Shown piece by piece: positions 17,557-20,500 of a stretch of 40,798 nucleotides of DNA. Position 1 is the first letter of the stretch, and each line of letters begins with the position of its first letter. The stretch comes from a virus (taxonomy: Duplodnaviria; Heunggongvirae; Uroviricota; Caudoviricetes). The position numbers were made by a program. The stretch lies in IMG/VR virus record IMGVR_UViG_2634166457_000005, positions 1 to 40,798 of that record. The stretch is one strand, 5' to 3'.

Positions 17557-20500
17557 TAAGACATTCCCGCTCTTACCCATCCCCGCCCTGAAAAAGGGCA
17601 TCTAATTAAACCACACCTATGGTGTATGCATTTATTTGCATACATTCAATCAATTGTTATCTAAGGAAATACTTACATATGGTTCGTGCAAACAAACGCA
17701 ACGAGGCTCTACGAATCGAGAGTGCGTTGCTTAACAAAATCGCAATGCTTGGAACTGAGAAGACAGCTGAAGCTGTGGGAGTTGATAAGTCGCAGATCAG
17801 CAGGTGGAAGAGGGACTGGATTCCAAAGTTCTCAATGCTGCTTGCTGTTCTTGAATGGGGTGTCGTTGACGACGACATGGCTCGATTGGCACGACAAGTT
17901 GCTGCGATTCTCACCAATAAAAAACGCCCGGCGGCAACCGAGCGTTCTGAACAAATCCAGATGGAGTTCTGAGGTCATTACTGGATCAATCTACAGGAGT
18001 CATTATGACAAATACAGCAAAAATACTCAACTTCGGCAGAGGTAACTTTGCCGAACAGGAGCGTAATGTGGCAGATCTCGATGATGGTTACGCCAGACTA
18101 TCAAATATGCTGCTTGAGGCTTATTCAGGCGCAGATCTGACCAAGCGACAGTTTAAAGTGCTGCTTGCCATTCTGCGTAAAACCTATGGGTGGAATAAAC
18201 CAATGGACAGAATCACCGATTCTCAACTTAGCGAGATTACAAAGTTACCTGTCAAACGGTGCAATGAAGCCAAGTTAGAACTCGTCAGAATGAATATTAT
18301 CAAGCAGCAAGGCGGCATGTTTGGACCAAATAAAAACATCTCAGAATGGTGTATCCCTCAAAACGAGGGAGGTTCCCCTAAAATGAGGGATATCCCTCAA
18401 AACAGGGGGACACAAAAGACACTATTACAAAAGAAAAAAGAAAAGATTATTCGTCAGAGAATTCTGGCGAATCCTCTGACCAGCCAGAAAACGACCTTTC
18501 TGTGGTGAAACCGGATGCTGCAATTCAGAGCGGCAGCAAGTGGGGGACAGCAGAAGACCTGACCGCCGCAGAGTGGATGTTTGACATGGTGAAGACTATC
18601 GCACCATCAGCCAGAAAACCGAATTTTGCAGGGTGGGCTAACGATATCCGCCTGATGCGTGAACGTGACGGACGTAACCACCGCGACATGTGCGTGCTGT
18701 TCCGCTGGGCATGCCAGGACAACTTCTGGTCCGGTAACGTGCTAAGTCCGGCCAAACTCCGCGACAAGTGGACCCAACTCGAAATCAACCGTAACAAGCA
18801 ACAGGCTGGCGTGACAGCCGGAAAATCAAAACTCGACCTGACAAACACTGACTGGATTTATGGGGTGGATTTATGAAAAACATCGCCGCACAGATGGTTA
18901 ACTTTGACCGTGAGCAGATGCGTCGGATCGCCAACAACATGCCGGAACAGTACGACGAAAAGCCGCAGGTACAGCAGGTAGCGCAGATAATCAACGGTGT
19001 ATTCAGCCAGTTACTGGCAACTTTCCCTGCGAGCCTGGCTAACCGTGACCAGAACGAACTGAACGAAATCCGCCGCCAGTGGGTTCTGGCTTTCCGGGAA
19101 AACGGGATCACCACAATGGAACAGGTTAACGCAGGAATGCGCGTAGCCCGTCGGCAGAATCGACCATTTCTGCCATCACCCGGGCAGTTTGTTGCATGGT
19201 GCCGGGAAGAAGCATCCGTTATCGCCGGACTGCCAAACGTCAGCGAGCTGGTTGATATGGTTTACGAGTATTGCCGGAAGCGAGGCCTGTATCCGGATGC
19301 GGAGTCTTATCCGTGGAAATCAAACGCGCACTACTGGCTGGTTACCAACCTGTATCAGAACATGCGGGCCAATGCGCTTACTGATGCGGAATTACGCCGT
19401 AAGGCCGCAGATGAGCTTGTCCATATGACTGCGAGAATTAACCGTGGTGAGGCGATCCCTGAACCAGTAAAACAACTTCCTGTCATGGGCGGTAGACCTC
19501 TAAATCGTGCACAGGCTCTGGCGAAGATCGCAGAAATCAAAGCTAAGTTCGGACTGAAAGGAGCAAGTGTATGACGGGCAAAGAGGCAATTATTCATTAC
19601 CTGGGGACGCATAATAGCTTCTGTGCGCCGGACGTTGCCGCGCTAACAGGCGCAACAGTAACCAGCATAAATCAGGCCGCGGCTAAAATGGCACGGGCAG
19701 GTCTTCTGGTTATCGAAGGTAAGGTCTGGCGAACGGTGTATTACCGGTTTGCTACCAAGGAAGAACGGGAAGGAAAGATGAGCACGAACCTGATTTTTAA
19801 GGAGTGTCGCCAGAGTGCTGCGATGAAACGGGTATTGGCGGTATATGGAGTTAAAAGATGACCATCTACATCACTGAGCTAATAACAGGCCTGCTGGTAA
19901 TCGCAGGCCTTTTTATTTGGGGGAGGGGGAAGTCATGAAAAAACTAACCTTTGAAATTCGATCTCCAGCACATCAGCAAAACGCTATTCACGCGGTACAG
20001 CAAATTCTTCCAGACCCAACCAAACCAATCGTAGTAACCATTCAGGAACGCAACCGCAGCTTAGACCAGAATCGAAAGCTTTGGGCTTGCCTTGGTGACG
20101 TCTCTCGTCAGGTTGAATGGCATGGTCGCTGGCTGGATGCAGAAAGCTGGAAGTGTGTGTTTACCGCAGCATTAAAGCAGCAGGATGTTGTTCCTAACCT
20201 TGCCGGGAATGGCTTTGTGGTAATAGGCCAGTCAACCAGCAGGATGCGTGTAAGCGAATTTGCGGAGCTATTAGAGCTTATACAGGCATTCGGTACAGAG
20301 CGTGGCGTTAAGTGGTCAGACGAAGCGCGACTGGCTCTGGAATGGAAAGCGCGATGGGGAGACAGGGCGGCATGAGACGACAGCGACGAAGTTTCACCGA
20401 CATCATCTGCGAAAACTGCAAATACCTTCCAACGAAACGCTCCAGAAATAAACGCAAGCCAATCCCAAAAGAATCTGACGTAAAAACCTTCAACTACACG

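Follow-up and report, generated by a model that had tools for sequence, protein, structure and literature searches.

Gene content of the prophage and the split O gene

The window, by which we mean the whole stretch of 40,798 nucleotides that was analyzed, opens with chromosomal DNA up to about position 7900 (the 3' end of yfaL, ubiG, gyrA, yfaA and a DUF1175 gene) and passes into a lambdoid prophage that extends from int (7853-8920, minus strand) to the end of the window, with its right end lying beyond it. An apparent frameshift in a host gene to the left of int was considered and dismissed, as two separate genes, yfaA and the DUF1175 gene, are found there. Positions 12005-24508 (12.5 kb) are 100% identical to contig KQ241474.1 of Escherichia coli M114, in which the prophage is integrated beside yfaA/yfaT-gyrA; a literature search recovered no paper mentioning this strain. 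The early region reproduces phage 434 almost gene for gene, with full-length tblastn matches at 93-100% identity. The full-length genes include xis, exo, bet, gam, kil, cIII, ea10, N, hex, cI, cro and cII, together with P, ren, ninB, ninE, ninF, ninG, ninI, lpxR, ylcG and a Q82-type Q. Int also matches over essentially its full length, at 76% identity to 434 Int, and the lysis and structural genes are less closely related, with mostly full-length matches through H at the end of the window and partial alignments only for the divergent nu1 and FI. Neither IS insertions nor multiple truncated genes, which would indicate widespread decay, were found within the window, and the sole frame anomaly other than that in O is an additional T within a hypothetical ORF of 62 aa. 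The immunity and replication region contains the following features:

16608-17972: 434-type immunity region, with cI, cro and cII all full length
16608-17240, minus strand: cI, 99.0% identical to the 434 protein by tblastn
17344-17559, plus strand: cro, 100% identical to the 434 protein by tblastn
17679-17972, plus strand: cII, 99.0% identical to the 434 protein by tblastn
17919-18005, minus strand: expected oop RNA, placed by coordinate transfer from the phage 434 annotation (offset 7880)
18005-18876, plus strand: replication initiator gene O, a pseudogene of 872 bp, which is not a multiple of 3
18005-18508, plus strand: ORF1, 167 aa from an ATG, corresponding to O residues 1 to about 129 with the complete origin-binding domain
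18382-18876, plus strand: native C-terminal (P-interacting) frame of O, from frame analysis
18873-19574, plus strand: gene P, intact, 233 aa, 99.1% identical to 434 P and overlapping the stop of O

In the 434 record oop occupies 10039-10125 and O starts at 10125, and both cII and O stand at the same offset to the window. The gene order cI-cro-cII-O-P-ren is that of phage 434 and lambda, with a matching, translationally coupled P directly after O and ren after P; with 434 in particular the window shares the immunity type, a P that is 99% identical and both halves of O at 96-98% identity.

These halves of O are found in different frames. In a tblastn search with the 434 O protein, residues 1-129 aligned to 18005-18391 (97.7% identity) and residues 139-299 aligned to 18391-18873 (96.3% identity) in a frame other than that of the N-terminal segment, with a joint E-value of 2.9e-163, far beyond chance; correspondingly, the starts of the two ORFs are 2 and 1 modulo 3. 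The codon listing of ORF1 shows a tail of about 38 out-of-frame residues that ends in a TGA at 18506-18508. The C-terminal frame is open from 18382, being preceded by a TAA at 18379-18381 inside iteron 2, and the ORF list places the C-terminal ORF at 18502-18876 (plus strand, 124 aa, GTG start). Its first possible starts are the GTG codons at 18502 and 18505, which overlap the stop of ORF1 (GUGGUGA), and frame analysis detected no Shine-Dalgarno sequence upstream of the GTG. The Pfam family PF04492 (Phage_rep_O) matches ORF1 residues 22-115 over the full profile (E = 6e-37, 126.5 bits against a cut-off of 28.7 bits); the match in lambda O covers the same residues, and within the locus only ORF1 contains the complete domain. 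No Pfam family matched the C-terminal half of O, even that of lambda O, and a PDB sequence search with lambda O returned no solved structure, so the domain limits were taken from Pfam and the literature. The locus therefore retains the N-terminal origin-binding domain of a lambda-type initiator O, and lacks the one continuous frame joining both domains that characterizes a functional O of about 299-312 aa.

The first-pass annotation of this DNA had proposed an intact N-terminal domain, a change of frame within the iterons leading to a stop at 18508, and a C-terminal domain in another frame at 18502-18876. The ORF list, tblastn and Pfam agree on the former points, and the ORF list, the two tblastn segments and the frame analysis concur on the last. 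We also ran the alignment to lambda O and ori: at 872 bp the gene is 28 bp shorter than the 900-bp O of lambda, and equally of phage 434 and of O55:H7 RM12579, and 67 bp shorter than the 939-bp, six-iteron O of 933W.

The three-iteron array and its distribution

The frame change falls within the replication origin, whose iterons were delineated by alignment with the annotated iterons of lambda, 933W and 434:

18353-18370, plus strand: ori iteron 1, ATCCCTCAAAACGAGGGA, preceded by a T at 18352
18373-18390, plus strand: ori iteron 2, 933W type, TTCCCCTAAAATGAGGGA, preceded by a 933W-type GG spacer at 18371-18372
18391-18410, plus strand: junction base T (18391) and last iteron, ATCCCTCAAAACAGGGGGA (18392-18410), read from the sequence
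18411-18472, plus strand: rest of ori, with an AT-rich region at about 18411-18448 and an imperfect palindrome at 18449-18472, from the alignments and the SNP table

The architecture of the lambda origin, namely 18-19-bp iterons followed by an AT-rich region and a palindrome, is present. The palindrome (18449-18472) has the form ATTCGTCAGA-GAAT-TCTGGCGAAT, the segment 18411-18472 differs from lambda, 434 and 933W by a few SNPs at most, and the fold of 18441-18500 contains a 10-bp stem (-15.5 kcal/mol). That there are only three iterons, at 18353-18410, had been noticed earlier and is read directly from the sequence, over exactly that span. Phage 434 and lambda share with the window the AT-rich region and palindrome; they differ from it in possessing four iterons, an intact frame and 28 more bp in O, whereas iteron 2 and its spacer in the window are of the 933W type. 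On the other hand, iterons 1 and 2 with the GG spacer are identical to those in the O genes of the Stx phages 933W and P27, the former of which encodes a functional O of 312 aa (PMC7466680). The Stx-phage array has six iterons, and that of the window equals it minus 67 bp between iterons 3 and 6, lacking three iterons (3/4/5) and the frame. Across its length, according to the SNP table, the O of the window alternates on a fine scale between 434-like and 933W-like patches.

Among publicly deposited proteins, KNA41248.1 of E. coli M114 matches ORF1 exactly, and the assembly of this strain (GCA_001186315.2) encodes the 167-aa product unchanged, with an identical DNA junction. Loci with this T-junction came solely from the look-up of the exact protein, which gave four besides M114, two in NCBI assemblies and two in Logan read-set assemblies: 1) the separately assembled read set SRR024322 (Logan), which is identical to M114 over 8.7 kb; 2) SRR077219 (Logan), with the same DNA junction; 3) GCA_051592065.1, with 1 SNP in 6 kb; and 4) GCA_902842135.1, with 45 SNPs in 11.8 kb that form patches within P, ren and ninG-ninI and leave O unchanged. 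Such patchy SNPs around an identical O indicate that the allele resides in prophages that have since swapped neighboring segments. The exact T-junction had no match in GTDB species-representative genomes or JGI metagenome contigs, and was absent from 5,426 complete E. coli genomes and from 50,697 phage records.

A sister allele, with C at both positions where the window has T, i.e. the junction (18391) and the base before iteron 1 (18352), is present in 41 of the 5,426 complete E. coli genomes, or about 3% of the complete genomes with this O type (41/1,313). As in the window, O is 872 bp long with three iterons in O26:H11 strain 11368, O157:H7 strain F6321 and 39 other genomes, and the junction of iteron 3 with iteron 6 is common to the window and the O26/O157 pseudogene; the latter differs in its C junction, the C before iteron 1 and the 933W-like SNPs in its flanks. 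In both loci inspected (F6321 and 11368) PGAP marks the gene as 'frameshifted'. Two contigs were matched in IMG/VR, both with the C-junction, and neither junction occurs in any of the 50,697 phage records, 126 of which carry this O type (at least 80% of the query covered). The O26 11368 allele sits in a heavily decayed remnant with IS600 and without cI or cro, whereas the M114 prophage is otherwise intact. A separate observation concerns strain 13E0780, in which a 39-bp duplication has been added to the three-iteron allele, giving a gene of 911 bp that is still out of frame; this array points to further instability.

Origin of the deletion

Iteron starts in the 933W array are spaced 20, 19, 20, 24 and 23 bp apart, and its iterons 3 and 6 have ATCCCTCAAAAC in common, at a distance of 67 bp. 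A simulated 67-bp deletion between these ATCCCTCAAAAC repeats of 933W yields the F6321 and O26 arrays base for base. Further, one complete genome, FDAARGOS_944, contains an intact six-iteron O with T at both marker positions, and a simulated 67-bp deletion between the 13-nt TATCCCTCAAAAC repeats of an array of this type gives the window array save for one unrelated SNP. Judging from these reconstructions, the allele most likely arose by one 67-bp deletion between iteron 3 and iteron 6 of a six-iteron, Stx-phage-type array, and its last iteron is most likely a hybrid that takes its left half from iteron 3 and its right half from iteron 6 (ATCCCTCAAAAC followed by AGGGGGA). The left halves of iterons 3 and 6 are direct repeats of 12-13 nt, and slipped-strand mispairing or unequal recombination between them would have removed the 67 bp (iterons 3/4/5), leaving three iterons and shifting the frame by +1 nt. 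The right flank is lambda/434-like in the window and 933W-like in FDAARGOS_944; hence this genome would represent the parent type rather than the actual ancestor, and extra recombination has to be assumed. The fine 434/933W mosaic of O likewise calls for later recombination. As both flanking markers co-vary with the parental type, we lean towards the same deletion having occurred independently twice, once in the T-junction allele studied here and once in the C-junction allele of O26, O157 and other lineages.

The lesion is real and heritable, with very little likelihood of an artefact of assembly or sequencing. The repetitive array and the 434-like and 933W-like mosaicism of O might raise the suspicion of a collapsed repeat or of a chimera of paralogous prophages, but we find such an error scarcely credible: the identical junction recurs in five loci, among them a separate assembly of an SRA run and strains that are 1 and 45 SNPs away in the vicinity, a loss of 67 bp does not resemble a homopolymer-type error, and the sister allele is found in 41 closed genomes. 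A more substantial alternative concerns the parental array. The first-pass annotation had explained the missing unit by a 28-bp deletion, and, while the figure holds as the difference from lambda, a 67-bp loss from a six-iteron parent is the likelier event. Loss of 28 bp (iteron 3 and spacers) from a lambda/434-type array of four iterons would have the same functional consequence, and accords with the arithmetic (900 - 872 = 28), with the 434/lambda-like character of the window to the left of iteron 1 and just to the right of the junction, and with the four iterons of its nearest overall relatives, phage 434 and O55:H7 RM12579. Yet it appears unlikely on several counts: the window has a 933W-type iteron 2 and spacer; the parent it requires, with a 933W-type iteron 2 followed by a TAAAAC-iteron 3, was not found in the 5,426 complete genomes; the microhomology available to it is 2 nt (TA), as against 13 nt for the 67-bp deletion; and FDAARGOS_944 supplies a six-iteron parent type with both T markers in place. 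A T-junction with a lambda-type iteron 2 was also searched for and not found.

The 67-bp deletion in a six-iteron array has a counterpart in the origin of an IncX1 plasmid, where initiator-binding units are likewise lost by a direct-repeat-mediated process, involving a 22-bp repeat (PMC6118388). The iterons there are non-coding and their loss alters copy number, whereas those of the window lie inside the initiator coding sequence. The same study was rejected as a precedent for hotspot mutations of O and its iterons, as it concerns the IncX1 plasmid. The lambda r99 mutation was similarly dropped as an analogy for iteron deletion, since it is a 12-bp deletion that sits in the AT-rich arm (PMC4488673). 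Our literature search recovered no paper describing iteron-register deletions as a recurrent killer of O; the T-junction is a new allele, while inactivation of a lambdoid prophage by frameshift is of an already known kind.

Consequences for replication and for prophage evolution

O is essential for the lytic growth of lambda and contacts P through its C-terminal half; the window thus carries an inactivating frameshift in a gene required for this phase. O binds the iterons by its amino-terminal half and interacts with P to bring the helicase to the origin (PMC4488673). ORF1 is predicted still to yield a dimeric origin-binding domain, which would have no covalent link to the C-terminal domain that recruits P-DnaB. 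With the halves of O uncoupled in this manner, origin-bound ORF1 could not recruit P-DnaB, no helicase would be loaded at ori and no self-started theta replication would follow induction. Hence, the M114 prophage is most likely unable to initiate its own replication. An O-defective prophage had also been the prediction of the first-pass annotation, and it is the best-supported reading in view of the PGAP label on the sister allele, the 0 of 50,697 phage records with either junction and the GTG without a Shine-Dalgarno sequence. Given that the other early, lysis and head/tail genes in the window are intact, this looks like the recent inactivation of an otherwise intact-looking prophage.

The lesion is the frameshift; the missing iterons would probably not in themselves be disabling, as smaller arrays are reported to suffice: according to work cited by Kozlowska et al. 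(PMC7466680), three iterons are enough for normal lambda growth, and two iterons with the AT-rich region are enough for unwinding and in-vitro replication. In a P27-derived plasmid, by contrast, all six iterons are required (PMC7466680), and a three-iteron origin may thus itself be weak. The origin of the window may nonetheless well work in cis once a co-resident or superinfecting lambdoid phage provides an O of matching specificity. Since co-resident prophages can amplify or complement defective lambdoid prophages (PMC2669165), 'defective' is to be understood here as incapable of self-initiation, and not as immobile.

Two routes by which the split gene could still serve replication have to be weighed. 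The two pieces might cooperate, with ORF1 binding ori and a separately translated C-terminal domain recruiting P-DnaB, so that the prophage would remain replication-competent. The overlap of stop and start (GUGGUGA) at 18502/18505, the fully open C-terminal frame and the intactness of the rest of the prophage are in line with this, but the GTG has no upstream Shine-Dalgarno sequence, the C-terminal domain would have no tether to the origin, isolated phages show neither junction (0/50,697 records), and the sister allele of O26 11368 lies within an obviously decayed remnant; we regard such cooperation as highly improbable. Just as improbable, in our estimate, is a leaky recoding that restores enough of a 290-aa O with a shortened linker, either by -1 ribosomal slippage at A_AAG or A_AAA or by RNA polymerase adding one A at the A6 run (18434-18439). 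The 290-aa protein would result from a -1 shift at any point in 18382-18505, the 124-nt overlap holds four lysine tetranucleotide motifs (A_AAG three times and A_AAA once), the 10-bp hairpin begins 9 nt past the A_AAA motif, and the length of the O linker is naturally variable, with 13 additional residues in Stx phages (PMC7466680). Against this, the ORF1 frame lacks a canonical X_XXY_YYZ heptamer and offers only tetramers, which in the absence of a strong stimulator shift at about 0.15% versus a background of 0.11% (PMC4066793). Moreover, formation of the O-some needs a large molar excess of O, for which a ratio of 20:1 is quoted in PMC3349717, and the allele is absent from the records of viable phages. 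With no heptamer, and with this arrangement in 0 of the 50,697 phage records, the locus does not have the hallmarks of a programmed -1 frameshift gene. We are accordingly fairly confident in the reading that the phage-434-like prophage of M114 harbors a real, heritable O pseudogene, generated by a 67-bp iteron deletion, and that it has lost replication initiation.

We have also considered whether the recurrent deletion might be a selected 'grounding' switch, in which ORF1, the iterons and oop exclude superinfecting phages or permit mobilization by helpers only. Such an allele could be favored by the host, as the loss of O would spare it replicative killing on derepression, and as plasmids with oop and the ori iterons block phages of the lambda replication type (PMC3349717; PMC4488673). 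In this case the O fragment, the three iterons and oop could titrate or block the O of superinfecting phages of that type, and the prophage could be mobilized only when a helper supplies O. We assign this scenario a slim chance; in our view the biology amounts to ordinary decay of a prophage, to which the recurrent hotspot adds a feature of modest interest.

In practical terms, the deposited 'phage replication protein O domain' and 'replication protein' are the halves of one pseudogene, and the M114 prophage is to be scored as replication-defective despite its complete look. More generally, placing the binding sites of an initiator within its own coding sequence makes for a fragile gene, because most changes of register between iterons destroy the protein: in a six-iteron array only 4 of the 15 possible iteron-to-iteron register changes keep the frame, and the difference between lambda and the Stx phages is itself an in-frame register change, of 39 bp. 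Iteron-register deletion hence offers a simple, countable path from an active to a stranded lambdoid prophage, which is of relevance for purely sequence-based prediction of whether Stx and related prophages are inducible.

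Insertion site and early-region gene content

The integrase gene of the prophage lies beside the host sequence:

7853-8920, int, adjoining the host flank (1-7912)

Its product shares just 76% identity with the Int of phage 434, against values of 96-100% for xis and the remainder of the early arm. The prophage is positioned directly downstream of yfaA and a DUF1175 gene, beside gyrA-ubiG-yfaL. Inspection of the complete genome of E. coli strain 2313 revealed an integrase and an excisionase at this same yfaA/DUF1175-gyrA site, and an integrase is also listed under the match in other top-matching genomes (O26, O103 and others).

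Phage 434 carries a Nun-like gene between ea10 and N, for which no match was found in the window (interval 14400-15536); in the identical locus of E. coli M114, ral and sieB occupy this place instead. The dam methylase, SASA esterase and bor/iss genes of 434 are likewise missing from the window.

The Q region, the late half and a split small ORF

Downstream, the window shows the same arrangement as phage 434:

21984-24318, lambda-type Q fragment, lpxR (opposite strand), ylcG and a Q82-type antiterminator

The lambda-type Q is reduced, as in 434, to a 29-aa N-terminal fragment, followed by the lpxR (lipid A deacylase) moron, and then by ylcG and the antiterminator. Given that the endolysin downstream of the latter shares only 33% identity with that of 434, and that the head and tail genes display 35-92% identity, the late half of the prophage derives from a different lambdoid lineage.

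At 25550-25736 the homologue of CPT_434_70, a phage 434 ORF for a hypothetical membrane protein of 62 aa, is broken across two frames by one additional T (TTATTTCC versus TTATTCC). As a terminator-like GC stem and the T8 behind it overlap with this ORF, the latter is possibly no genuine gene; alternatively, a homopolymer error may lie behind the extra T.

Recombination and iteron copy number at O

The window and GCA_902842135.1, which carries the same deletion junction, are identical in O and differ by 45 SNPs grouped in patches in P, ren and ninG-ninI. This clustering indicates patchwise recombination on either side of the frameshifted O allele. Three third-codon-position differences in P (18989, 19001 and 19028) are restricted to the window among the eight alleles compared.

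In E. coli FDAARGOS_944 (NZ_CP065613, locus positions 1-5253) a T-type six-iteron O is intact, yet the prophage shows defects elsewhere: cII and a DUF7301 gene are frameshifted, and an IS4 adjoins the repressor.

The O of E. coli 13E0780 (NZ_CP020106, locus positions 1628-2538; 911 bp, 'frameshifted') displays the iteron order it1-it2-C-it1-it2-C-last iteron, which corresponds to the three-iteron deletion allele with a 39-bp tandem duplication. The O iteron array not only contracts but also expands.
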